64,000 nucleotides of DNA. It comes from an uncultured bacterium (GTDB lineage: Bacteria > Patescibacteriota > Minisyncoccia > UBA6257 > 2-01-FULL-56-20). Position 1 is the first letter of the stretch; each line of letters starts with the position of its first letter. The notes under the pieces are model-generated. The model did not search any database. It saw only the letters and a list, made by a program, of their open reading frames with translations, and was not told where the DNA came from. This document shows positions 8,482 to 58,489 of the stretch, piece by piece. The DNA is taken from contig OY970358.1 of the NCBI GenBank assembly GCA_963718575.1, positions 29,718 through 93,717 on the forward strand, given 5' to 3'. A program made the position numbers and the translations under genes.

Positions 8482-9489
8482 TTATCGCTTATTCAATAAC
8501 GTCCTCTTATACGTGTCCAAATGATTCAAGATGAGGCCGGTACCTTTCGCCACGCAGAACAACGGATCTTCAGCCACGTATGCCTGCACGCCAAGGAAGC
8601 GCTCAAAGAATTCCGGAAGGTGATGGAGTTGCACTGAACCGCCGCTCAAGATAATTCCCTTTTCCATAATGTCCGCCACGAGCTCCGGCGGTGTCACATT
8701 AAAGACATTCTGCACGCTGCTCGCGATCTCGATGAGCAGCGGGTTCAGCGCCTCCGCGATCTCGTTCGAGTTGATGACGACGTCTTTCGGCAAGCCGGTC
8801 ACGAGATCGCGTCCGCGCACCTGGTATTCCATCTTATCCTTCGTCGGCATCGCCGAACCGATCTCGATCTTGACCTGTTCAGCGGTCTGTTCGCCGATCG
8901 CGAGCGCATATTTCTTTTTGATGTAGTCCATGATCGCCTGGTCGAACTTGTTCCCCGCGATGCGGAGCGAGTTCCACGAGACGATGTTGCCGAGCGCGAT
9001 CACCGCTTGCTCGCTCGTGCCGCCGCCGATGTTGATGATCATGTTGCCGCTGCGCGCGTTGATCGGGATGCCGGCACCGAGCGCCGCAAGGATCGGCTCG
9101 CGCACGATGAACGCGTTGCCCGCGCCCGCTTCGCGCGCGGCGTTCATCACGGCGCGGCGTTCGGTCTGCGTGATGCCTGCCGGAACGGAAATGACGACAT
9201 CCGGTTTTAAAATATTAAACCAACCCGATGCCTTCGAGATAAAGTATGTAAGCATCGCTTTTGTAATATAATAATCGGCGATCACACCGTCCTTCAGCGG
9301 CCGGTATGCAATAATTTCGTCCGGCGTGCGTCCTATCATTTCCTTCGCTTCCGAGCCCACTGCAAGGACGGTGTTATCGGGTTGCGTGAGCGCCACAATC
9401 GTGGGCTCGTTGATGATAAACCCCTTTCCCGGCACAAAAACCACGGTGTTAGCCGTGCCCAAATCGATGCCGATCTTCTTGCCGAACAT
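8482..9489 (-). CDS. mreB: rod shape-determining protein MreB
   Basis: IGIDLGTANTVV N-terminus with the actin fold throughout. Confidence 0.9.
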   Translation of the reverse strand: MFGKKIGIDLGTANTVVFVPGKGFIINEPTIVALTQPDNTVLAVGSEAKEMIGRTPDEIIAYRPLKDGVIADYYITKAMLTYFISKASGWFNILKPDVVISVPAGITQTERRAVMNAAREAGAGNAFIVREPILAALGAGIPINARSGNMIINIGGGTSEQAVIALGNIVSWNSLRIAGNKFDQAIMDYIKKKYALAIGEQTAEQVKIEIGSAMPTKDKMEYQVRGRDLVTGLPKDVVINSNEIAEALNPLLIEIASSVQNVFNVTPPELVADIMEKGIILSGGSVQLHHLPEFFERFLGVQAYVAEDPLFCVAKGTGLILNHLDTYKRTLLNKR

Positions 9490-9587
9490 GCTTGCTATTA
9501 TAGGCGAAAAACAACGTTAATGCAATATTTTTATAGAAAAAGAAACCGACCATTGGGGTGGTCGGTAAATGATTCAATTTTGGCTGG

Positions 9588-10103
9588 TCAAGCCGCTGCG
9601 GTATTCTGTATGAGTTGCTGGAAGCAATACTCCCAGTCCTTGATGACCTTGCCATCGGGGGTTAAACCCTTAACCCCTTCTTTGGATTTGGCATTCACAA
9701 AGCGGAAGTGAAGACGTTTATTCCAGCGTTGCAAAGAAATTTCTGCAGCGCAGACCAATCTATCGTCCCCGTGTGCATCACCGTCGGTGATGATGCATGC
9801 AGGAACGTTATTTTGGAGTGCTGCAAGTGCTACATAGAAGCCCCCGGGAAGACTGGTGCCCGATACGTGGTCGGGCAGATACAGGTCGGTGAGGACGCAG
9901 TCCCAGGTTGGACGTGCAGGAAGAGGAGTGAGTACCCCTTCCTCGTAAAATTCACCCGGAGAATATCCACCACCACTTACCCCTTGTCCTGCTCGTGAGG
10001 CATTATTAATGATCACGACTTCGTGCTCACCCTTCACTTTCTCGGCAAATTCCCGAGCGGATTGAAGGTTGTGCTCAGAATCTTCACAAATAAGAATGCG
10101 CAT
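9588..10103 (-). CDS. hypothetical protein with CheY-like receiver-type N-terminus (atypical)
   Basis: MRILICEDSE ... VLTDLYLPD resembles a receiver domain with its phospho-acceptor Asp. The remainder is unassignable. Confidence 0.35.
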   Translation of the reverse strand: MRILICEDSEHNLQSAREFAEKVKGEHEVVIINNASRAGQGVSGGGYSPGEFYEEGVLTPLPARPTWDCVLTDLYLPDHVSGTSLPGGFYVALAALQNNVPACIITDGDAHGDDRLVCAAEISLQRWNKRLHFRFVNAKSKEGVKGLTPDGKVIKDWEYCFQQLIQNTAAA

Positions 10104-10265
10104 CGGGAACTCCTTTTCACGCCTGCCTTTCGGTCAGGACTTACTGAAAATTAACCTTTTAATCAGATAGTCTGGCTATATTATAGCATATATAAGTGTA
10201 GTGTCAAGCCACGCGAATATGGCGATTTTAGAATGATTTAATGGGCTTTTTGTTATGGTGGCGGA

Positions 10266-10658
10266 ATGGAAATTTTTTATGGAAGTTACGCCGAGACGAA
10301 ACGATTTCTAAGGCAATTTTATAAAAATATTGGGCAAATTTGGTGTCCGGTTTTAAATGATTATATCGTTTTTACGAGGCGCGGATTTGATCACCTTATT
10401 GGAAAAGGAGACATTGTCCGTCCGAAAAGCGAACAAAAGCGCCGGTTCTCGTTGCTTCCTTATGTCCAGGATATATTAATATATCCGCACGCAGAATTTT
10501 CATATGAAACTAAGCTTATCAATGAAAAGAATATTCATTATTGGAAGTTTACAGGAGCCGGCGGTGGTATGCATATAACAATAATTATTAAGCAGACGCC
10601 AAAAGGTAAAAAGCAGTTTTTGACCGTATATGGTAAAAAGCAAAAATCCACGCTGTAA
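10266..10658 (+). CDS. hypothetical protein in AT-rich islet
   Basis: 130-aa Lys/Tyr-rich ORF in a ~650-bp segment clearly more AT-rich than its flanks. Confidence 0.4.
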   Translation: MEIFYGSYAETKRFLRQFYKNIGQIWCPVLNDYIVFTRRGFDHLIGKGDIVRPKSEQKRRFSLLPYVQDILIYPHAEFSYETKLINEKNIHYWKFTGAGGGMHITIIIKQTPKGKKQFLTVYGKKQKSTL

Positions 10659-13540: not shown

Positions 13541-15499
13541 TTATTGTGTTATCACGTCGCCGGATTGGCTGTTCAGCGAGGGGTCATTTGGCAGATAGGT
13601 GGTCACTGGAGGCGCGGTGAGCGTTACCGTAGATCCGGTGAACTCGTCCGTGGCGGTGAGCGTCGTCGGCCCGAGGAGGGTAACCGTCTGCCCCACCTGG
13701 TTGATCGCCGGCGTGTTCGTCACCTGGAAGACCGCCTGCGCCGGCGGCCCGACCACCCCCGTCGTTGCCGGGATGAACGGGATCGTCCACGTGATGAGAC
13801 CGGTTCCCGCATCATACGTTGGCACGGAAGGCGGTGTCGAGGTCGTTCCGACTCCGGAGATCACTGCCAGGCCTGAGCTCGTCGCTACGCCCGTGAACGT
13901 CGTCCCCGACTGCAGGTACGCTGATACAGTAACACTTGTCGCGTCGGTTGAATAGTTGGCGATGTCCCAGTGGATCGTGTACTCCGTCGGCAGATTGGCC
14001 ACCGGCGGATAGGGGCCGGCGTTCGCGATGCCGGGCGTTGTCTCCTTTACATATCCGTTCGCCCCGAGCGTGATCTCGCCTGCGACTTTATTGGTGAGCG
14101 TCGTCACGGAGGTCGTGTTTGTTCCGGCGGTGCTCTGCAGGACGGTCGGCGACTGCGCCTCTGCGGTGACGCTCAATGAATAATTTTTCTCGCCTTTCTC
14201 GGCAAGTTGTGTCGGGAATGTCGGCAGTGTTTCGATCGTGAAGTCCACCGTTCCCGACTGGCCCGGAGCGAGCGACGCGAGCGCCGGAGTATTCGCCGCA
14301 TACCACGTGATCACATCTGATTGTGAATTGAACGACCCGTCGGTTTTCAGGGTCGGAAAATCATACATCTGTCCGGTGAGCGTGGCGGAAATATTCACAT
14401 CCTGGAATGTCACATTCGAATTGTTTGTATACGTTAAAATGTAGTTAAGACTGTCCCCTATTTTTGAAACATAGGTTGATGAGTTATTCAATGAGATCGT
14501 GAGTGAAAGCGGCGATGGGATCACGGTAAAGCTCGTTTGCTGGGAAGCCGCGGGATAGTTCTGTCCCGAAAAGTTCGCGCCGATCGTGCCGGTCAGTGAG
14601 TATGGCGCCTGCGCAGGGCCGACGATGTTTCCGGTGATGACGAGCGTTCCCGTCGCATTCGCCGCGAGCGAGCCAAGATCCCATGTATCGTTTCCGTTAT
14701 TGATCGGCGCCGTGCCGCTGCTCGACACAAAGTGATATGCCGGCGGATAGTTCATTTGTAGCTGGATGCCCTGCAGTTCGTTCGCCGTATCATTTTGGTA
14801 ATTCACCGCGAGGGCAAAGTTTTGTCCGCTAAAGATACTTGCGGGGGCGTTGTAGGTGATGGTGAGCGCCGATTGCGTCCCGATGGCAAGCGCGGTGCTT
14901 GCGTTAGTGGCGAGTTGTGTCGCTCCGGTCGCGGCGGTCTGGTAGGTGAGCACAACGCCTACGGTCTGCACAGTGCCTGGATCTCCGGTTGCGACAAGCC
15001 AGATGGTCTGCGGCGGATTGATGGTGAGCGAGCTTAGGGTGCCGACGTCCTGCGTCGCGACGGTGCCGCTCGCAAAGGAGATATCAGCAGGAAGGGAAAT
15101 ATTTAACTGCCCATCATTAAGCACGCTCTTTGAATTATTCGAGACGGTGATCGTGAGCGGAAACGGTTCACCGATCACGATCGATCCCGGATTGGAGAAT
15201 GAAATCGTGACGTTCGGCACCGGAGGCGGGAGCACCAAATAATAAACGAAAGCGGCGATCGCGATTACGACGAAGATGCCGATCGTAAAAAAGAGCAATC
15301 CGTGGCGGCGGAAAAAGCCGGGCGGCTTATTGAACCCACTTGATCCACCGCTTGAGCCGACCGGCGTACCGGCGAGCGGCGCTTCCGGCGGCGGCACGGT
15401 GCCGGGCGTTTTCGCCGGCTGAGATTTTTCTCCCTGGGGCGCGTACGTATATTTCTTTTCTTTGCTGTCCCAGATCGAATTTGGATTATAGCCGGGCAT
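13541..15499 (-). CDS. large membrane-anchored surface protein with repeated Thr/Ser-rich beta domains
   Basis: N-terminal signal-anchor (LLFFTIGIFVVIAIAAFVYYLVL) followed by ~600 aa of repetitive T/S/N/G-rich segments. Confidence 0.55.
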   Translation of the reverse strand: MPGYNPNSIWDSKEKKYTYAPQGEKSQPAKTPGTVPPPEAPLAGTPVGSSGGSSGFNKPPGFFRRHGLLFFTIGIFVVIAIAAFVYYLVLPPPVPNVTISFSNPGSIVIGEPFPLTITVSNNSKSVLNDGQLNISLPADISFASGTVATQDVGTLSSLTINPPQTIWLVATGDPGTVQTVGVVLTYQTAATGATQLATNASTALAIGTQSALTITYNAPASIFSGQNFALAVNYQNDTANELQGIQLQMNYPPAYHFVSSSGTAPINNGNDTWDLGSLAANATGTLVITGNIVGPAQAPYSLTGTIGANFSGQNYPAASQQTSFTVIPSPLSLTISLNNSSTYVSKIGDSLNYILTYTNNSNVTFQDVNISATLTGQMYDFPTLKTDGSFNSQSDVITWYAANTPALASLAPGQSGTVDFTIETLPTFPTQLAEKGEKNYSLSVTAEAQSPTVLQSTAGTNTTSVTTLTNKVAGEITLGANGYVKETTPGIANAGPYPPVANLPTEYTIHWDIANYSTDATSVTVSAYLQSGTTFTGVATSSGLAVISGVGTTSTPPSVPTYDAGTGLITWTIPFIPATTGVVGPPAQAVFQVTNTPAINQVGQTVTLLGPTTLTATDEFTGSTVTLTAPPVTTYLPNDPSLNSQSGDVITQ

Positions 15500-15989
15500 C
15501 TATGAATATTACCGCATCCCGGTGCGCTTTTGAAGCGTGTGTGCGGCAATAAAATTCCTGGTGCGTGATATAAAAGTATTCCGGATGTTTTTCGCCGCAC
15601 ATGATGCATTCCGCCCCCTCCGGATCCCATCCCAAGATACTCAAAACGGTTGCCCATTTGAACTGCTCGCCCATCAACAATTCCCACAGCGCCGGTTCCG
15701 GTTCCGCATCGGGAAGGAGCTGGCTGAGCGAGTGCATATCGCCGAGCGGCCGCGTCAGGCGCGTGGATTTGAGCGCATCAATAAGCTGCGTCCCTTTTGC
15801 ATCAAAAAAGCGGATCTTCGCCACGATCCCGGGCTCAAGGTGCGGCGCAAGCTTGGAAGTGATCTTTCGTGAGCTTTTCGCCTTCGCCACGATCTTTCCG
15901 AACCGCTTTGTAAAAAGCGTATAGCGGCTATCGAGGTCGCCGAGCGGTTCTTTTCGGAGCACGATGGCGTCGGTCACGTATTCTTGCAT
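15486..15989 (-). CDS. recO: DNA repair protein RecO (short form)
   Basis: MQEYVTDAIVLRKEPLGDLDSRYTLFTKRFGKI OB-fold N-terminus and a C-terminal CIMCGEK...C zinc-finger-like motif. Confidence 0.7.
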   Translation of the reverse strand: MQEYVTDAIVLRKEPLGDLDSRYTLFTKRFGKIVAKAKSSRKITSKLAPHLEPGIVAKIRFFDAKGTQLIDALKSTRLTRPLGDMHSLSQLLPDAEPEPALWELLMGEQFKWATVLSILGWDPEGAECIMCGEKHPEYFYITHQEFYCRTHASKAHRDAVIFIDARL

Positions 15990-16282
15990 GAATCCATTAT
16001 AGGGAATAAGAAATGCGGTGGCTAATGTGCGCAGGAGTGGACAATGTTCAAGGGATTTTATATGCTATTGGATAAGAAAAGGTCAACGATCAACGATTCC
16101 AGTATTGATGCCATGAGGAAGGGGGTGCGATATGATGTGTCGCTTCCATATCATTTAGTGGAGACACCGGTGTTTCCATGGGGATGATGCGGCAACGGAC
16201 TAATTCTTAACTCTTCCTGCGGATCAGGCTCTGGACGAGGCATCGGATTCGTCCACCCAGATCTAAGAAGGCGAAGCAACCC

Positions 16283-16316
16283 GGAGCCGGTTTCGATCGG
16301 CTCCGTTTTTATTTTT
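16283..16316 (+). terminator. intrinsic terminator-like hairpin + T-run
   Basis: ggagccg-gtttcgat-cggctcc followed by gtttttattttt. It closes a ~300-bp ORF-poor segment downstream of recO. Confidence 0.45.
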
Positions 16317-16350
16317 GCGCGGGGTATCGGATCAGGTTCGAACCTATTTT
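16317..16350. repeat. tRNA-3'-end-like repeat, copy A
   Basis: gcgcggggtatcggatcaggttcgaacctatttt. Shares the ggttcgaacc T-loop-like core and gtgcg..g acceptor-like part with the tRNA-Tyr 3' end at 21294. Confidence 0.7.
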
Positions 16351-16364
16351 ATGAAAAAGGCCCA

Positions 16365-16766
16365 TCATTGCTGATGGACCTCTGATAGTTTCTCGCCAAA
16401 GGGAGTGGAAACGTCCATTTCGATATGGACATCTATCCCCACAAAATCCAAACCGCCACCTATAGGACCACAGAGAATTTTCACCACTCCAGGAGGCGGT
16501 AGTTCGAATAGCTTATAAGAAACCCCTTCTTGTACACGGTCCCCTGCACACCGGAGAAATTGCCCCAAGATTTGCATAAGTCGTTCAATAGATCCTTTTT
16601 CGGCCACGAGGGAGAAATCTTTCTCCCCGCCTTTGAATGCTCGCAAGGCAAGGGCAATCTTTTGCCTAATCTCCCAAGTAGTTTCTTTCGGACCAATTAC
16701 CAGCTCATACATAGATCCTCCTGAAAAATCTGAAAGTAGTATACCAAATCTAAGTAAAAAAAACAA
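16365..16766 (-). CDS. hypothetical protein (cassette gene 1)
   Basis: 133-aa ORF with no recognisable motifs, bounded by repeat copies A and B. Confidence 0.4.
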   Translation of the reverse strand: MFFLLRFGILLSDFSGGSMYELVIGPKETTWEIRQKIALALRAFKGGEKDFSLVAEKGSIERLMQILGQFLRCAGDRVQEGVSYKLFELPPPGVVKILCGPIGGGLDFVGIDVHIEMDVSTPFGEKLSEVHQQ

Positions 16767-16782
16767 CTTTTGAAAAAGCTAT

Positions 16783-16832
16783 GCGTTAAACGAATTTTGT
16801 GCGGGGTATCGGATCAGGTTCGAACCTATTTT
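16783..16832. repeat. tRNA-3'-end-like repeat with conserved flank, copy B
   Basis: gcgttaaacgaattttgtgcggggtatcggatcaggttcgaacctatttt. The flank gttaaacgRattttgtgcg is identical to the 3' flank of tRNA-Tyr. Confidence 0.7.
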
Positions 16833-17263
16833 ATGCAAATTAAAACCGCAGGGTGAATCCAGGTACATCAGATCGTTCGCTCGCCACTACTAGATCTTCC
16901 TGGATTCACTTGTGCGGTAGCCTAAATCGTGTCGTCCCGTTTTCTTTCGAAAACGGAAAAGTGAAAGCGTGGCCATTCCTTCCACTGATTTATTACCCGT
17001 CGTAGCCTTGGTGGGCTCTTACCCCGCCAACTAGCTGTTAGGGCTCCTGACCGAATCATCCAGTTCCCGGAAAAGCAGTTTTCGGTGGCCTGCGCCTCCC
17101 GAAACGGGGTGTTCCTCGCGAGTCTACCCCAACTGGACGTTCGTTATCCGAAACTGTATTGAGTCTAAGTAGAAATAAACCAAAAAGCAAATTTTGCGCA
17201 CTCTCAGGATGCGAACCGTTTTTATTCGATTTTAAGCTCTTAAAATCTGACTTTTCTGCTTTT

Positions 17264-17297
17264 GTGCGGGGTATCGGACCAGGTTCGAACCTATTTT
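17264..17297. repeat. tRNA-3'-end-like repeat, copy C
   Basis: gtgcggggtatcggaccaggttcgaacctatttttt. Confidence 0.7.
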
Positions 17298-17322
17298 TTG
17301 ACAGTTTTCGAAGAGTTCATAT

Positions 17323-17976
17323 CTACTCCTTTTTTAAAACGACCAAAAATTCAATCACATCATTATCGTGAATTCCAAAAGGGGCTTTAACTCTCCAATC
17401 GGAAGCGGTAATGGGTGCTGTCCCAACTGCTTCAAGCACCGTTCCATTATAGCTTGTGGTGAATGCAATGGTTACCGGATGGGTAATGCCGTCGATGGTG
17501 AGCGATCCGGGTGCGGTCGATGAAATGGTTTGGCCGCTGGAAGCAAGGCCAGCGAGCGCGATGGGGGCTGTTAGCGTGAGCGTCGCATTCGGGTACGTAT
17601 TGGTATCGAGAATTTGTAGGAGGCTAGGATACGGTTTGCCGCCCATCGTTAATTGACTGAGATCGGCTTGGAATGTTCCCGATGAAATCTCGTCATTTAC
17701 AATGACAAGCGAGCCGGTTACCGCGCTTGTGCGCCCCACAATCACGCTGCTCTGCGTAAGGAACGATTCATTCACTCGAAAGCCGGCAATTGAACCACTC
17801 GTCGCTAACCAAGTGCCGTCAGCCGAGGTCGTGATTGTTGTCTCCGTGTTCAGTTGTGGCAATTGCAATGGAGGTGCCGTTGGACCCGCCAATGATCCGG
17901 GAAAGATAAGAAGCGCGATAATCACAATCGCGCAAATTGCGACAATGCCGATCATGATCCACATGAATATTTTCAT
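17323..17976 (-). CDS. YceI-like domain protein with N-terminal TM anchor
   Basis: TM helix, then a beta-rich domain with YceI-family-like pattern (GFRVNESF...VIVGRTSAVTGSL...). Confidence 0.5.
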   Translation of the reverse strand: MKIFMWIMIGIVAICAIVIIALLIFPGSLAGPTAPPLQLPQLNTETTITTSADGTWLATSGSIAGFRVNESFLTQSSVIVGRTSAVTGSLVIVNDEISSGTFQADLSQLTMGGKPYPSLLQILDTNTYPNATLTLTAPIALAGLASSGQTISSTAPGSLTIDGITHPVTIAFTTSYNGTVLEAVGTAPITASDWRVKAPFGIHDNDVIEFLVVLKKE

Positions 17977-18410
17977 TTATAAAGATAGTGGGGATTGCCG
18001 GGTTCGGTGACCGTCAGCAGGTCGAAGTATTCTCTGATCTTGGTGAATTTGCCGTCTTTGATATCACAACTTAATACTATTGGAATATTGACCATCGTGC
18101 CCGGGGCTGGTCTATTGGTAGATGCTGGCCATTTGTCCGTGACAACGGCCTTGTGCACATATTCCCAAATAAGCTTCGTCCCTTCGGCGTCAGTGAAGAC
18201 ATTGAAAGGCAGAAGTCCTTCCCCTGTGCCATGTGTCCGTGCAGCCACCGATCGCGTTGCGAGCTCCCGAATCTTGTCGAGTCCTTTAAACGTCTCACCG
18301 GTGGCCATGACCACCCACTCCCCGTCCGGCGACCAAAGCTTCATCATGTCCTCGACCCCTTCGTGGGTCATCGCTTCAGTAAACGCCTTAACAAAATCTT
18401 CGGTATTCAT
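17973..18410 (-). CDS. NTF2/SnoaL-like fold protein
   Basis: 145 aa, alpha+beta cone pattern (FTEAMTHEGVEDMMKLWSPDGEWV...). Overlaps the downstream gene by 4 nt. Confidence 0.45.
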   Translation of the reverse strand: MNTEDFVKAFTEAMTHEGVEDMMKLWSPDGEWVVMATGETFKGLDKIRELATRSVAARTHGTGEGLLPFNVFTDAEGTKLIWEYVHKAVVTDKWPASTNRPAPGTMVNIPIVLSCDIKDGKFTKIREYFDLLTVTEPGNPHYLYK

Positions 18411-18647
18411 ATTTTTTTAGGTTAATAGTTTTTAATCCTCGACCCTATCAACGCCGTTCGAGAGATAAAGATATTACCGCCGTAAAGGCAGCATAGCTTT
18501 AGATAAAGTTTTAATGTATTAAAAGGATTTTGTGCGCGGAGAGGATTCACCCGCGAGTCTTGCGCTCGCGCAAGCTCTGGGCACCGGCTCGGCAAATTTT
18601 TCTGCTGAAAAATTTTCCTCCGCCGTTCGAATCCCCTTCAGAACAGG

Positions 18648-18714
18648 CAAACAAAATAGGCTTTGTTCGAGCGTCCCGAAGGGTGTCTTGCTCGAACAAA
18701 GCCTATTTTGTTTG
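18648..18714. repeat. perfect 25-bp inverted repeat with 17-nt loop
   Basis: caaacaaaataggctttgttcgagc-gtcccgaagggtgtctt-gctcgaacaaagcctattttgtttg, immediately abutting repeat copy D. Confidence 0.8.
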
Positions 18715-18716
18715 CG

Positions 18717-18750
18717 GTGCGGGGTATCGGATCAGGTTCGAACCTATTTC
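18717..18750. repeat. tRNA-3'-end-like repeat, copy D
   Basis: gtgcggggtatcggatcaggttcgaacctatttc. Overlaps the stop of the NUDIX gene. Confidence 0.7.
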
Positions 18751-19181
18751 TCCCTATAAAACTTCCCCTTCTGAATATCCTCTATCGCCTGTTTTGTATA
18801 AGGCATCGTATTGGGAGGCAAATTATCAATCGGAAACCAGCCACATTCATCGCACTTTTCCGGTTCCATATTACTCGGTTCACCACTCCATTTTTCACAG
18901 AGAAAAAAGAAGTCATCGTATTCCATATCCGTTCCGCCATAGTCCAATCGGTGCATGGCGTGCACAAAAGAAATATCTTCAGGAAGCGCATCAATACCCA
19001 CTTCCTCTTTCGCTTCACGGATAGCGGCAATTGAAGGTTGTTCATCTTTTTCAACATGACCAGAGGGCAATCCATACTTGCCATCTTCATAACCAGTGTT
19101 CGCGCGACGTAAAAGGAAAATCTGATTGTCGCGTTTTAAAACAAGATATGCCGCAACGTAAACTTTATGATGATTGCTCAT
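18744..19181 (-). CDS. NUDIX hydrolase
   Basis: Nudix box GLPSGHVEKDEQPSIAAIREAKEEVGI (GX5EX7REUXEEXGU). Confidence 0.8.
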   Translation of the reverse strand: MSNHHKVYVAAYLVLKRDNQIFLLRRANTGYEDGKYGLPSGHVEKDEQPSIAAIREAKEEVGIDALPEDISFVHAMHRLDYGGTDMEYDDFFFLCEKWSGEPSNMEPEKCDECGWFPIDNLPPNTMPYTKQAIEDIQKGKFYREK

Positions 19182-19210
19182 TCCAAAATTATATCACTTG
19201 TTGATATTTT

Positions 19211-19260
19211 GCGTTAAACGGATTTTGTGCGGGGTATCGGACCAGGTTCGAACCTATTTT
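19211..19260. repeat. tRNA-3'-end-like repeat with conserved flank, copy E
   Basis: gcgttaaacggattttgtgcggggtatcggaccaggttcgaacctatttt. Confidence 0.7.
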
Positions 19261-19312
19261 ATACAGTTTTCCAACAATTCCGTCTTTTAATTTTGCGATA
19301 TAAAACACCCCT

Positions 19313-19726
19313 CTATTCTCTACTGCCAAAATCTTCAAGAGTTTCCACCTCATTGGGGGTTTTAGGATTGGCCCAAAAATTAATGGTGTCTCTTATTTTC
19401 TCATCAACCAGTTCCTTTATAGCCTGCTCAGCTCCTTCCCTGGTCTCGGGGCTAGCCAAATCCCCAATGATTTTTTCTGCTATCAATTTTCCTTCAGCTG
19501 CAGCCTCATCATAGAATCTTCCATATGTTTCCCGACCAAAAACATCGCCAGGGTGTTCTGCTTTAAATTCTTCTCCAGCCCGATACGCTTTTAATGCTGC
19601 CCTCAAACCTATGCGCCTCATCTGCTGGTCAAGAGAAAGAGGTTTTAAAGCTTCTCCCTCCGCTTGCGGCTTTATACTTTCCATATCCATATGAGTTAAA
19701 TTTAACAAACAGGAATATAATGTCAA
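19313..19726 (-). CDS. hypothetical acidic protein
   Basis: 137-aa ORF with no motifs. Probable start at MDMESIKPQ. Confidence 0.35.
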   Translation of the reverse strand: MTLYSCLLNLTHMDMESIKPQAEGEALKPLSLDQQMRRIGLRAALKAYRAGEEFKAEHPGDVFGRETYGRFYDEAAAEGKLIAEKIIGDLASPETREGAEQAIKELVDEKIRDTINFWANPKTPNEVETLEDFGSRE

Positions 19727-19796
19727 CCAAGATGCGATGTTGGCTGTTATAGCTCGTTCAGTTTGAACTGATTTCCAGAAAATGAGCTTTGATGAG

Positions 19797-20228
19797 CTAC
19801 CCTACTAACCTAGTTCCCGTGACCTTATAGCCTCCTCCCGGCCATTCCCATGCTGCGGAAAAACTATTTCCGCTGGGGTCGAAAATACTCTTCATATGAT
19901 TATCGGAACCTTTATGACCAAACCAGACCGTGAGAATATTGTCGGTAAGTTCATAAACGTAATCGAGCGTCAGGCCATCAAGGGAACTGTAAAAGCGACT
20001 CCATATTTCTTTACTTGGTCGTTCATTGGGCTGCTTCATATGGCCAATGATTTCGATGCCTTTTATTTTTCTCCCACCGTAGTTTAGATCAACGTGTTGC
20101 ACGAGGAAAAATTCGCCCTCCATCCATTCATATTTGATCTGGCCCTGCGCATCGCCCGATATTTTCCATGTACCGACCAATCGATTAAGGGCTTTGATAT
20201 CTGAGTCTAGCGAATCTATTTTCATCAT
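19797..20228 (-). CDS. hypothetical protein, beta-barrel/lipocalin-like pattern
   Basis: 143 aa, alternating beta pattern with Trp/Gly motifs (GTWKISGDAQG...WEWPGGGYKV). Confidence 0.35.
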   Translation of the reverse strand: MMKIDSLDSDIKALNRLVGTWKISGDAQGQIKYEWMEGEFFLVQHVDLNYGGRKIKGIEIIGHMKQPNERPSKEIWSRFYSSLDGLTLDYVYELTDNILTVWFGHKGSDNHMKSIFDPSGNSFSAAWEWPGGGYKVTGTRLVG

Positions 20229-20280
20229 AAATATATTTTAGCAAAATGGAGCCCAAATTGTATGGGCTATTACTTTTAAT

Positions 20281-20340
20281 GCGTTAAACGGAATTTGTGC
20301 GGGGTATCGGACCAGGTTCGAACCTATTTTTTAAGAAATA
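20281..20340. repeat. tRNA-3'-end-like repeat with conserved flank, copy F
   Basis: gcgttaaacggaatttgtgcggggtatcggaccaggttcgaacctatttttt. Confidence 0.7.
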
Positions 20341-20600
20341 TAGAGGGGAACAGCCGAAGCTATTCCCCTCTCGTATGATGACGCCGCCCTAAACTACAGG
20401 GCGGAGGTGCGTCTGGGTAAGACGGCTAAGGGCTGAGTGGTAATGCCACTCACTTTTGGGCGGTTCCCTCAATCTAAACCACAGAGAGAGGTTTGCGTTC
20501 GCCTTTCGTGAACGCGGCCCAGCGATTGACCCCACTCTGCACCCCTGCAGAACGGAATCTTCATAAGATTATCTACCGATATAGTACTCCTATTTTAGAA
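20341..20600 (+). ncRNA. candidate structured RNA; RNase P RNA-like motifs (very tentative)
   Basis: ORF-free 330 bp. Opens with a 9-bp hairpin agaggggaa..ttcccctct. Then, in RNase P order: ACAGGGCGGAGGUGC, GGGUAAGACGGCUAAGGGCUGAGUGGUAAUGCCACUC, and GCAGAACGG. The second resembles AGGUAAGGGUGAAAGGGUGCGGUAAGAGCGCACC. The region between the P4-like and P10-12-like parts is far too short for a canonical type-A RNA. Confidence 0.25.
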
Positions 20601-20669
20601 TTTCGTCAAGCATATTTCACTTTAAGATCCAAACTTCCACTTTACAAATTATCCTTCAAAGGATAAAAT

Positions 20670-21170
20670 ATGGGCAGAAACTTAATTCCAGACTCGGATG
20701 AGTCAAAGAGCGGATGCTCAGGAGGAACAATGTTCTATTACGCAGGCACGAGAGAAGAACATCGGTGGCGCAAATGGCAGAAAATATTCACCGATTTCCC
20801 GTGGCTCTATGCCGTTAAGAGCAATTGGGATTATAAATCGGACAATGTGCGGATCACCAACAATTTCGGCGACCTGAAAGTGTTGCTACTTTCTCCTGCA
20901 AGGGATGAAAGCGTCGAAATTTGGATATACGGAGAAACGATGTATCCACCCAGAATATTTTGTCAGGCCAGCTGGGTGGTGAAAGCTTCGCACTCTGACG
21001 GGAAGACGCTCTGGGCAGAACAGGTCGCGGGGAACGGCAACCCATACGAAGTGGTTCGCTACGTGGTCGTCAAATTTGCCCATGACTCCCATTACACCAT
21101 CTATCGCGACAAAGAGGATCTCAATCTCGAAGGGTGGATCAATCGTTTGTCTGAAACACATCCCTTTTAA
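20670..21170 (+). CDS. hypothetical protein
   Basis: 166-aa ORF, the only plus-strand gene in the island, followed by a hairpin plus T-run. Confidence 0.45.
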   Translation: MGRNLIPDSDESKSGCSGGTMFYYAGTREEHRWRKWQKIFTDFPWLYAVKSNWDYKSDNVRITNNFGDLKVLLLSPARDESVEIWIYGETMYPPRIFCQASWVVKASHSDGKTLWAEQVAGNGNPYEVVRYVVVKFAHDSHYTIYRDKEDLNLEGWINRLSETHPF

Positions 21171-21226
21171 GGAGCGTCGCCGATGACGTCCAACCTCTTT
21201 TTGCTTCCGCCAGATTTTCTGGCACA

Positions 21227-21260
21227 AACCCCAACCATTACGGCTGGGGTTTTTCTTATT
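21227..21260 (+). terminator. intrinsic terminator-like hairpin + T-run
   Basis: aaccccaaccattacggctggggtttttcttatt. Confidence 0.45.
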
Positions 21261-21293
21261 GAAAAATATTTTTTATCTGTTAAACGGATTTTG

Positions 21294-21377
21294 TGCGCCG
21301 GGCAGGATTCGAACCTGCGTAGCCCATAGGGCGAAAGATTTACAGTCTTTTGCGATTGACCACTCCGCCACCGACGC
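21294..21377 (-). tRNA. tRNA-Tyr (anticodon GUA), long variable arm, CCA not encoded
   Basis: Reverse complement folds as acceptor GCGUCGG/CCGGCGC, D-arm with a long loop, anticodon stem AAAGA/UCUUU with loop CUGUAAA, variable arm GCCCUAUGGGC, and T-arm GCAGG-UUCGAAU-CCUGC. Confidence 0.8.
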
Positions 21378-21396
21378 AATGTTTTCTATCCCAACA

Positions 21397-21723
21397 CTAT
21401 TCTTCCGAACCCTCCTTATTCTGCCCGCTCATCTCTTTAAAATCAATGTTCGGGCGCTTGTCCTCTTCCGGTTTGATCTTTTGAAGATGCTTTGCGAGCG
21501 TGTTGTCCAGTTTTAAGATGAGTACTTTTATGCGCCGCAGAAACTTCAAAAGGAAATTATTGAATGCGGCATCGATCTTTTCCGGCATCTCGGAATGCGC
21601 CCAGCGTTCAAGAAATCCTTTTTCCTCTGTCGGTACCTCTTCGATGCGCGGCAGAACCTGCACCGTCAGGTACAGCACGGTTCCCAGGCAGATCATAAGG
21701 ATGATAGTGAAGATGATTTCCAT
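21397..21723 (-). CDS. hypothetical small membrane protein
   Basis: N-terminal TM helix, then a charged C-terminus. Confidence 0.4.
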   Translation of the reverse strand: MEIIFTIILMICLGTVLYLTVQVLPRIEEVPTEEKGFLERWAHSEMPEKIDAAFNNFLLKFLRRIKVLILKLDNTLAKHLQKIKPEEDKRPNIDFKEMSGQNKEGSEE

Positions 21724-21746: not shown

Positions 21747-22208
21747 TTACGCTTCGACGCGATAGAATTCGCCGACGGTGACGTTCTCCCCCACCTTCGC
21801 GATCACTTCACCCACCACATCCTTCACTGTCCGCGACTCATCCTTTACATACGGCTGCGCAAGCAATTCCTCGACGTCCTTCGGAGCCGCCGCCGCGATA
21901 TGCATCGCAAGGTCATGTGCCAACGCCCTGAACGGCTCCGAGCGGACCACGAAGTCCGTCTCCGCGCTCAGACGGAGCAGGACGCCGATGCGCTCGTTGT
22001 GCACATATGACTGCACCAGGCCCGCGCCGGTCTCTCGATCCGCACGCTTTTCCACCTTTGCCAGTCCTTTCTCGTGAATGATCTTGACTGCGGCGTCGAT
22101 GTTGCCGTCAGCCTCGATGAGCGCCTTGCGGCAATCCATCACTCCTGCGCTCGTGATATCGCGCAATTTTTGAACCATCTCCGCCGTCACCGTTGTTTTG
22201 GTTTCCAT
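21747..22208 (-). CDS. tsf: translation elongation factor Ts (short form)
   Basis: N-terminal UBA-like MVQKLRDITSAGVMDCRKAL. 153 aa, about half the E. coli length, consistent with reduced-genome lineages. Confidence 0.8.
   Translation of the reverse strand: METKTTVTAEMVQKLRDITSAGVMDCRKALIEADGNIDAAVKIIHEKGLAKVEKRADRETGAGLVQSYVHNERIGVLLRLSAETDFVVRSEPFRALAHDLAMHIAAAAPKDVEELLAQPYVKDESRTVKDVVGEVIAKVGENVTVGEFYRVEA

Positions 22209-56673: not shown

Positions 56674-58489
<1,816 letters not shown>

Follow-up and report, generated by a model that had tools for sequence, protein, structure and literature searches.

A gene-free unit of a variable cassette island beside a tRNA-Tyr gene in a CPR bacterium carries copies of a 16S rRNA hairpin and a 23S rRNA loop

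The locus lies within the 64-kb stretch of DNA that we analysed (hereafter the window), where the minus strand carries, in this order, rpsB, tsf, an ORF of 108 aa, tRNA-Tyr(GTA), a stretch of 5.3 kb, and recO (15486-15989). For the EF-Ts encoded by tsf (21747-22208, minus strand), there are hundreds of relatives, 80-95% identical, that carry the labels Paceibacterota, Parcubacteria or Minisyncoccia. Between tRNA-Tyr and recO, the repeat sequence GCGGGGTATCGGAYCAGGTTCGAACCTAT occurs in six copies, all on a single strand, where none would be expected by chance. When read on the minus strand, the copies align to the T-arm and the 3' end of tRNA-Tyr once an insertion of 5 nt is allowed for, and each is a degenerate tRNA-Tyr copy of 31-45 nt that closes one cassette. 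The sequence flanking the tRNA on its downstream side, CAAAATCCGTTTAAC, is common to three of the six. Together, the repeats split the tRNA-Tyr/recO stretch into six cassettes of 0.46-1.45 kb each, and the distance from a repeat to the stop codon of the last ORF in its cassette is 0-56 nt (Table 1).

The proteins encoded by the cassettes include a NUDIX hydrolase, a SnoaL-like protein, a YceI-like protein, and several that belong to no family, and no ORF of the island exceeds 217 aa. The minus strand, on which tRNA-Tyr lies, also carries six of the eight ORFs in the island. We found no gene for a recombinase, an integrase or any other mobility function among the island ORFs, and no recombinase or integrase among 20 further ORFs of the window. 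The GC content of the island is 46% as compared with 52% for the window, and the core of the fifth cassette reaches 54%. The island also holds further fragments of tRNA-Tyr: a seventh 3'-end-like piece is found near 18525-18560, and a piece near 20525-20545 resembles the D-arm.

The fifth cassette is the subject of this analysis. This gene-free stretch of 436 bp is one unit of the variable gene-cassette island that lies beside the tRNA-Tyr gene of this CPR bacterium, and its borders fit exactly between the repeat copies at 16801-16829 and 17266-17294. There is no credible ORF in 16830-17265, where the longest reading frames are 44-50 aa, and gene callers place no genes in the cassette on any of the four public contigs that contain it. 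The first-pass annotation, which was made from the letters of the window, had described this interval as a non-coding spacer between two repeat copies; the positions of the repeats, the absence of ORFs longer than 50 aa, and the gene calls on the four contigs confirm both its coordinates and its non-coding status. The repeat copies it named are indeed present, but the annotation missed that they are partial tRNA-Tyr copies marking an island of cassettes.

The four contigs with cassette 5 come from different samples and assemblies (JGI 3300041431 and 3300017948; ENA ERZ27249988 and ERZ27250077). In three of them the cassette is complete, including the junctions on either side; the fourth contig begins within it. 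Over the portion that each contig holds, the sequence is 100% identical across all four assemblies. Because four independent assemblies agree in this way, misassembly of cassette 5 is excluded; by the same token, the identity of all copies means that there is no variation to analyse.

Table 1. Features of the cassette island, with emphasis on cassette 5 and its flanking repeats (positions are those of the window)
Feature	Position	Strand	Description
tRNA-Tyr(GTA)	21293..21377	(-)	Anchor of the island and origin of the repeat sequence
Repeat R6	20299..20327	(-)	
Repeat R5	19229..19257	(-)	
Repeat R4	18719..18747	(-)	
Repeat R3	17266..17294	(-)	Partial tRNA-Tyr-like copy, att-like site; ends cassette 4
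Cassette 5, complete non-coding unit	16830..17265	(-)	436 bp; flanked by repeats R3 and R2
AT-rich 5' leader	17155..17265	(-)	9-bp AT hairpin at 17228-17247
112-nt irregular hairpin domain	17043..17154	(-)	Holds CGGGAGGCGCAGG; not rRNA-like; dG -43 kcal/mol, z -1.6
Intact 16S rRNA hairpin copy	16996..17042	(-)	Rfam SSU model 237-283; E. coli about 240-286
Two small hairpins	16935..16986	(-)	z -2.98; the second has a 10-bp stem capped by a GAAA tetraloop (16935-16958)
Long terminal hairpin	16845..16918	(-)	Outer 6-bp stem, 11-bp stem GUGAAUCCAGG/CCUGGAUUCAC, 5-bp stem AGAUC/GAUCU
Apical loop CUAGUAGUGGCGAGCGAACG of the terminal hairpin	16874..16893	(-)	Same sequence as the conserved domain-I loop of 23S (E. 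coli 23S about 239-258)
U-rich tract UUUUAAUUU	16836..16844	(-)	Directly 3' of the terminal hairpin; terminator-like
Repeat R2	16801..16829	(-)	Partial tRNA-Tyr-like, long form; shares the tRNA downstream flank CAAAATTCGTTTAAC; ends cassette 5
Repeat R1	16319..16347	(-)	Distal end of the island; adjoins recO

We compared the site with 37 related genome loci collected via EF-Ts and with further metagenome contigs. The frame of tsf and tRNA-Tyr on one side and recO on the other is conserved in the related loci, and the content between them varies. The site is empty in three of these loci (L009, L019 and L050) and has other content in eight (L010, L011, L013, L015, L016, L017, L023 and L055); in all of the latter except L013 and L055, unrelated genes spanning 1.4-5.7 kb fill the site. 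A profile of the repeat matched L010, L011 (where there are three copies), L013 and L015; in each case the repeat lies downstream of tRNA-Tyr, and its orientation never changes. We found no conservation of the tRNA-recO spacer across species. The tRNA-Tyr/recO site is a hot spot, at which a full-length tRNA is accompanied by direct repeats of its 3' part and occupancy varies among relatives, as in a tRNA-anchored island. This island is the real context of cassette 5.

On the minus strand, cassette 5 contains an intact copy of one 16S rRNA hairpin. The Rfam model for bacterial SSU rRNA (SSU_rRNA_bacteria, RF00177) matched 17042-16996 with its positions 237-283 (27.7 bits, E 1.5e-6), a match which appeared only when 251 nt were searched and not with 1.4 kb or the whole window. 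In the alignment to this model, the piece forms one complete hairpin with 13 canonical pairs out of 15, the other two being non-canonical. The match covers 47 of the 1533 model positions and remains below the gathering score of 50. Direct comparison with E. coli 16S (246-282) gave identity at 30 of 37 positions, and the 16S genes of Methylomagnum, Deinococcus, Clostridium and Segatella, which represent four phyla, are 84-92% identical to the piece over 37-44 nt; the hairpin copy as such is about 91% identical to real 16S genes. A BLAST search of 7.3 Gb of plasmids returned E 4e-7, with all 134 records covering the same 44 nt, and a 16S profile found its sole significant match in the entire window at 17046-16988 (E 4.6e-9). 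A 16S-like stretch had been noticed here in the first-pass annotation, which proposed covariance models as the check; the identity to E. coli and the BLAST, profile and Rfam values all bear the stretch out as something other than chance, and the check itself gave a local SSU match that is significant at a sub-gathering score.

The universally conserved 16S sequence that lies 3' of this hairpin in real genes is absent from cassette 5. Because the score is far below 50 and the conserved sequence that should follow is absent, the 16S-like piece is a hairpin-sized fragment and not a gene or pseudogene of any length. We take the hairpin to be h11 in the standard 16S numbering. Together with h7, h11 of 16S is part of the binding domain of uS17 (PMC5591316). 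A candidate long-range helix between GCGGGGUA, which lies in the 16S-like piece, and repeat R2 was set aside as a probable chance 8-11-mer; such a helix is not a general feature of the island, because the other repeats directly follow ORFs.

The other rRNA-like element, CTAGTAGTGGCGAGCGAACG (16893-16874), is carried at the tip of the 74-nt terminal hairpin (dG -31.5 kcal/mol, z -3.5). Its 19-20 nt are identical to the 23S genes of many bacteria; the match is 17/18 against E. coli and 19/19 against the 23S of Methylomagnum. In 114 plasmid records, the 20-nt piece is 100% identical, and in every one of them the identity stops exactly at the loop. Taken alone, this match is not significant (E 0.02-1), and the Rfam LSU covariance model gave no match at E<=10. 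At the same time, a 23S profile run over both strands of the 64 kb matched nothing but this piece, which shares its strand with the 16S piece ~100 nt away; we roughly estimate the chance of such a placement at about 0.003. The stem that closes the loop, AGAUC/GAUCU, stands in the exact register of the native 23S stem UCCCC/GGGGA, and when RNAalifold was used to derive a consensus from the cassette and four real 23S sequences, five of the six closing pairs were retained in the cassette, four of them via changes on both sides. Since the identity ends at the loop in all 114 records, the stem and its 11-bp extension GUGAAUCCAGG/CCUGGAUUCAC are foreign to 23S. Chance is an unlikely explanation for the 23S-like piece because it is the sole profile match and lies near the 16S piece, the register of the stem is native, and the identity is limited to the loop. 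As judged from the sequence, the 23S-like loop is conserved while the stem that carries it appears foreign in sequence and native in register; the stem may also be a raw copy of an unusual native stem.

This element had been claimed in the first-pass annotation as well, as a 23S motif embedded in an inverted repeat. The motif is present as claimed (17/18 with E. coli) and draws its support from its context, and the inverted repeat is real and grows to 17 nt at 88%. A third motif, CGGGAGGCGCAGG, which had been read as resembling 16S, did not hold up, as it shares only an 8-mer with E. coli 16S and gave no profile or covariance-model match. The terminal hairpin followed by UUUUAAUUU is terminator-like in layout; its 18-nt apical loop and 74-nt length are atypical for an intrinsic terminator, and it is absent from the results of a consensus terminator scan.

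We compared the predicted fold of the unit with that of shuffled sequences. The minus-strand fold of the whole unit gave z -2.9, or z -3.65 when R2 was included, and the plus-strand fold of cassette 5 gave z -2.6. Because the plus strand folds nearly as well, folding gives no clear preference for either strand. No promoter-like (sigma-70-like) site inside cassette 5 passed our scan. Elsewhere in the island, cassette 1 contains a second ORF-free and strongly structured stretch (z -5.4) with promoter-like and terminator-like sites. Because cassette 1 also has such a stretch, the island may carry RNA genes. Comparison of the non-coding parts of cassettes 1, 4 and 5 revealed no homology other than the repeat.

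Searches for homologues of cassette 5 returned none in the 37 related genome loci, by either blastn or tblastx, and none in further relatives. We also searched metagenomes with a two-motif pattern consisting of CACCAAGGCNACGA, a gap of 98-128 nt, and GGCGAGCGAA; the only 4 matches were chance ones in unrelated GC-rich coding DNA. Viral contigs had no match to the two-motif, repeat or cassette-specific patterns, and in BLAST searches of phages and plasmids with cassette 5 only the rRNA patches matched. The translated cassette ORF had no relatives among 5.8e9 predicted proteins. Since no homologue was found, there is no evidence from conservation or covariation for the RNA as a whole. Rfam at gathering thresholds detected only two tRNAs in the whole window, and searches of 16100-17500 and 17500-21500 at E<=10 or 5 detected nothing relevant. 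RNase P, tmRNA, 6S, Y RNA, self-cleaving ribozymes and introns were each considered and had no Rfam match; a resemblance of GGUAAGAGC to RNase P CR-II was dropped. The adjacent ORF of 115 aa (16365-16712) is an ORFan with no Pfam match, and its AlphaFold model (pLDDT 49) is too poor for a fold search.

The island resembles several known systems and differs from each of them. The islands and tycheposons of Prochlorococcus are anchored at tRNA genes, grow by successive integrations, and are marked by partial-tRNA (att) repeats (bioRxiv 10.1101/2020.12.28.424599). As in those elements, the island described here follows an intact tRNA gene immediately on the 3' side, and the 3' part of that tRNA recurs within it as several direct repeats; it also sits between conserved housekeeping genes, is variable or empty in close relatives, and has a GC content below that of its surroundings. 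Unlike tycheposons, its units are tiny (0.46-1.45 kb) and lack an integrase or mobility gene among the ORFs examined, one unit is purely non-coding, and the repeat, rather than being a displaced functional tRNA end, has a fixed degenerate form that carries a 5-nt insertion and is conserved between species. The island is also reminiscent of an integron gene-cassette array, which can include non-coding cassettes: its small units, with one or two ORFs and mostly in a common orientation, stand in tandem, a conserved repeat resembling a recombination site directly follows the stop codon, cassette turnover is high, and one cassette has no ORF. However, the array adjoins neither intI nor attI and is flanked by tRNA-Tyr/tsf and recO; the repeat is derived from a tRNA and has only a 12-nt palindrome, AGGTTCGAACCT, in place of the imperfect inverted-repeat architecture of attC; and several cassettes appear to have their own promoter-like sequence.

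Cassette 5 itself shares with ribosomal-protein leaders the reproduction, in a non-ribosomal RNA, of an rRNA hairpin from a primary r-protein binding domain (16S h7/h11, uS17, PMC5591316). In contrast to those leaders, it does not lie upstream of a ribosomal-protein gene but in a mobile island, its copy is near-exact rather than a loose mimic, and it joins elements of 16S and 23S. It also resembles a partial rRNA pseudogene or an rRNA gene fragment outside an operon, in that its similarity to an rRNA model is significant but scores far short of the gene threshold; it differs in that it contains only two hairpin-sized patches, which come from different rRNAs, are not collinear with an rRNA operon, and include one grafted on a foreign stem.

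Several explanations for cassette 5 have to be weighed. We give almost no weight to chance resemblance or an assembly chimera: the weakness of the 23S match on its own (E 0.02-1) and the noise that proved to underlie the third motif would fit with chance, but the 16S hairpin reaches E 4e-7 in 7.3 Gb of plasmids and E 1.5e-6 in Rfam, and four assemblies are identical. A chance cluster of GC-rich motifs, which the first-pass annotation had offered as one possibility, is therefore rejected for the 16S piece on those two values and is unlikely for the pair, given the sole 23S-profile match and the register of the stem. The first-pass annotation had also suggested an ectopic rRNA intron with flanking exon sequence, which we weigh together with an intervening sequence and a degraded rRNA gene as one class; the presence of a real 16S-derived hairpin and the frequent insertions in CPR rRNA genes are in its favor. 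Against it, the group I and group II intron models have no match at E<=10, there is no homing-endonuclease ORF, the SSU match extends over only 47 of 1533 positions at 27.7 bits versus a gathering score of 50, and the conserved 16S sequence downstream is missing. Moreover, the two patches (47 and 20 nt, ~100 nt apart) come from 16S and 23S, an arrangement impossible to derive from an rRNA operon or a single intron; the idea of an intron with flanking exon sequence is thus largely refuted, and we regard this whole class of explanation as extremely improbable. An antisense regulator, i.e., a plus-strand RNA whose 47-nt and 20-nt complementarity to 16S and 23S rRNA could allow it to pair with nascent rRNA, is only a little less remote. 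The plus-strand fold (z -2.6) and the 9-bp hairpin at 17228-17247, which is followed by a T-rich run of the plus strand just before R3, are consistent with such an RNA, but a plus-strand promoter-like site is absent at the R2 end, the tRNA and all but two of the eight island ORFs use the minus strand, and both targets are stable hairpins buried in ribosomes. We know of no bacterial precedent for an antisense regulator of rRNA like cassette 5.

A cis-regulatory leader is improbable too. In such a leader, read-through of R2 would place the rRNA-like and terminator-like hairpins as a protein-binding attenuator in front of the 115-aa ORF (16365-16712). Cassette 5 is on the same strand as this ORF and directly upstream of it, with the hairpin and U-tract 125 nt before the start codon, and rRNA mimicry is the classic logic of r-protein leaders. 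Nevertheless, the cassette boundary R2 separates the two, the ORFs of other cassettes begin 48-90 nt past the repeat and have their own promoter-like sequence, and the 115-aa protein is an ORFan without a Pfam match (pLDDT 49) and not a ribosomal protein. A far more serious contender, though one we still consider doubtful, is that cassette 5 is a non-functional mosaic relic: junk in a fast-turnover island, where illegitimate or template-switch repair would have captured short pieces of abundant stable-RNA genes (16S, 23S and tRNA-Tyr), so that the hairpins were inherited from their source and not selected. The cassette and the adjoining ORF are both orphans, the island is full of tRNA-Tyr fragments (the six repeats, the seventh 3'-end-like piece, and the D-arm-like piece), and the 16S patch matches real 16S genes in stem and loop alike, so that it shows no covariation; the lack of a promoter-like site in cassette 5 and a whole-unit fold of z about -3, similar on both strands, also agree with a relic. 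What neutral decay does not predict is a 23S loop that is 100% conserved on a different stem in native register, with an 11-bp extension absent from real 23S. In addition, both patches are whole hairpins, a terminator-like hairpin and U-tract close the unit just before the repeat, and a streamlined genome of 0.88 Mb is expected to shed 436 bp of junk.

We tentatively favor, at somewhat below an even chance, the prediction that cassette 5 is an orphan structured-RNA cassette which displays mimics of rRNA hairpins. The copies of the 16S and 23S hairpins are real, and their function is unproven. Of the readings offered in the first-pass annotation, an rRNA-mimicking structured RNA is the one that fits the anatomy best, through its complete hairpins and its foreign stem in native register, and the absence of homologues counts against it. 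Mimicry is supported by the completeness of both rRNA-like hairpins, by the perfect preservation of the 23S loop on a stem of foreign sequence but native register, by the terminator-like hairpin with a U-tract that closes the unit just before the cassette boundary, and by the structured, ORF-free stretch in cassette 1; against it are the complete lack of homologues, the four identical copies, and the absence of a promoter-like site. The end of the island around cassette 5 may be decaying DNA, because the ORF of the adjoining cassette is an ORFan with a low-confidence fold.

If cassette 5 is such a structured-RNA cassette, it would be cargo in its own right, specifying a putative structured RNA of ~300 nt from the minus strand. 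Transcription would occur by read-through from cassette 4 or from a promoter that our scan did not recognise, and the RNA would end at the terminal hairpin and display the two rRNA hairpins outside the ribosome. Its most likely mode of action would be molecular mimicry, in which the RNA would bind or titrate a putative factor that recognises the early-transcribed hairpins of the 5' domains. The cassette probably arrived as its neighbors did, by recombination at the partial-tRNA repeats. This could have involved a site-specific recombinase whose gene lies elsewhere; alternatively, DNA could have been taken up and then recombined homologously between repeats.

Taken further, this family of CPR bacteria may run an integron-like, integrase-less exchange of mini-cassettes at a tRNA-Tyr-derived site, in which one cassette is a mobile RNA gene that mimics the 16S hairpin of the uS17 domain and the domain-I loop of 23S and thereby decoys or titrates a ribosomal protein, an assembly factor, or an rRNA-targeting toxin; this full scenario is speculative, and we think it unlikely as a whole. 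To our knowledge, no trans-acting mimic of rRNA hairpins has been described as mobile cargo in bacteria. Cassette 5 is real and unusual but a single orphan, and the array that surrounds it is at least equally interesting. If the cassette is only a mosaic relic, it serves as a caution that short but significant matches to rRNA models can occur in islands that hold no rRNA gene or intron. Should the RNA prove functional, it would represent a mimic of rRNA hairpins that acts in trans and is carried as mobile cargo, and it would bear on how ribosomes are tuned or protected in ultra-small symbiotic bacteria. Regardless of the RNA, the locus is a rapid-turnover array of tiny, integrase-less cassettes with conserved degenerate tRNA-Tyr ends that is found in several species of Paceibacterota, and it is relevant to how accessory genes enter streamlined CPR genomes, in which few mobile elements can be recognised.

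A degenerate 31-nt fragment of the tRNA-Tyr 3' end, carrying a 5-nt insertion, occurs in six direct copies across window positions 16319-21377. These copies bound six small cassettes, none with an integrase, which together reach from tRNA-Tyr to recO.

In cassette 5, the ORF-free unit between repeats R3 and R2, the 16S-like hairpin contains GCGGGGTA (17020-17027), which is exactly complementary to the 3' part of the two flanking repeats (16801-16808 and 17266-17273), with the complementarity reaching 11 of 12 positions when one indel is allowed. When R2 was included in the minimum free energy fold, this pairing served as the closing helix. The match could be the mark of a secondary recombination site; by our own estimate its p value is about 0.05, and it is probably due to chance.

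Cassette 1, nearest to tRNA-Tyr, holds a second stretch without an ORF (20295-20575, minus strand), for which strong structure is predicted on that strand (z -5.4) and which we consider a candidate small RNA. In the predicted fold, its tRNA-Tyr D-arm-like piece is paired with repeat R6. The stretch had no match in Rfam, and a search for a homologue in the related loci found none.

Features of the ORF-free stretch of cassette 1 and of TypA/BipA (window coordinates)
Feature	Position	Strand	Remark
Promoter-like TTGACG-17-TACTAT	20609-20581	minus	belongs to ORF-free stretch of cassette 1
Terminator hairpin, 13-bp	20371-20342	minus	belongs to ORF-free stretch of cassette 1
tRNA-Tyr D-arm-like piece GCAGAGTGGGGTCAATCGC	~20525-20545	minus	sequence resemblance
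TypA/BipA GTPase domain	57842-58489	minus	
TypA/BipA domains III to C-terminus	56674-57717	minus	

At the recO end of the island, the 115-aa ORF of cassette 6 (16365-16712, minus strand) is an ORFan whose sole match among 5.8e9 proteins is itself. It matched nothing in Pfam or PADLOC, its AlphaFold pLDDT is 49, and it may not be a genuine gene. Between repeat R1 and recO lies a plus-strand ORF of 47 aa (16044-16187), present as a gene call on two ENA contigs. Downstream of this ORF, on the same strand, a clean terminator with a stem of 10 bp and a T-run occupies 16282-16305.

Repeat R4 is immediately followed by an inverted repeat whose 26-bp arms match perfectly (18647-18672 and 18690-18715, minus strand). 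A seventh tRNA-Tyr 3'-end fragment, GGGTGAATCCTCTCCGCGCACAAAATCC (~18525-18560, minus strand), resembles the tRNA more closely in sequence than R1-R6 do and does not have the 5-nt insertion. Elsewhere in the window, TypA/BipA apparently lies in two ORFs (56674-58489, minus strand) separated by a gap of ~125 bp; the gene could be a pseudogene, or the split could stem from a frameshift or an intervening sequence.

The island of one related species (locus L010) contains two identical 173-aa ORFs (9258-10389), which we take to resemble the IS200/IS605 Y1 transposase (motif HSTYKLQYHIVWGTKYRRK), as well as a tRNA-Ala on the opposite strand. The 31-nt repeat is also present in four related species, and the tRNA-Tyr/recO site is empty in other relatives. 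In appearance, this CPR cassette array resembles an integron or a tycheposon.
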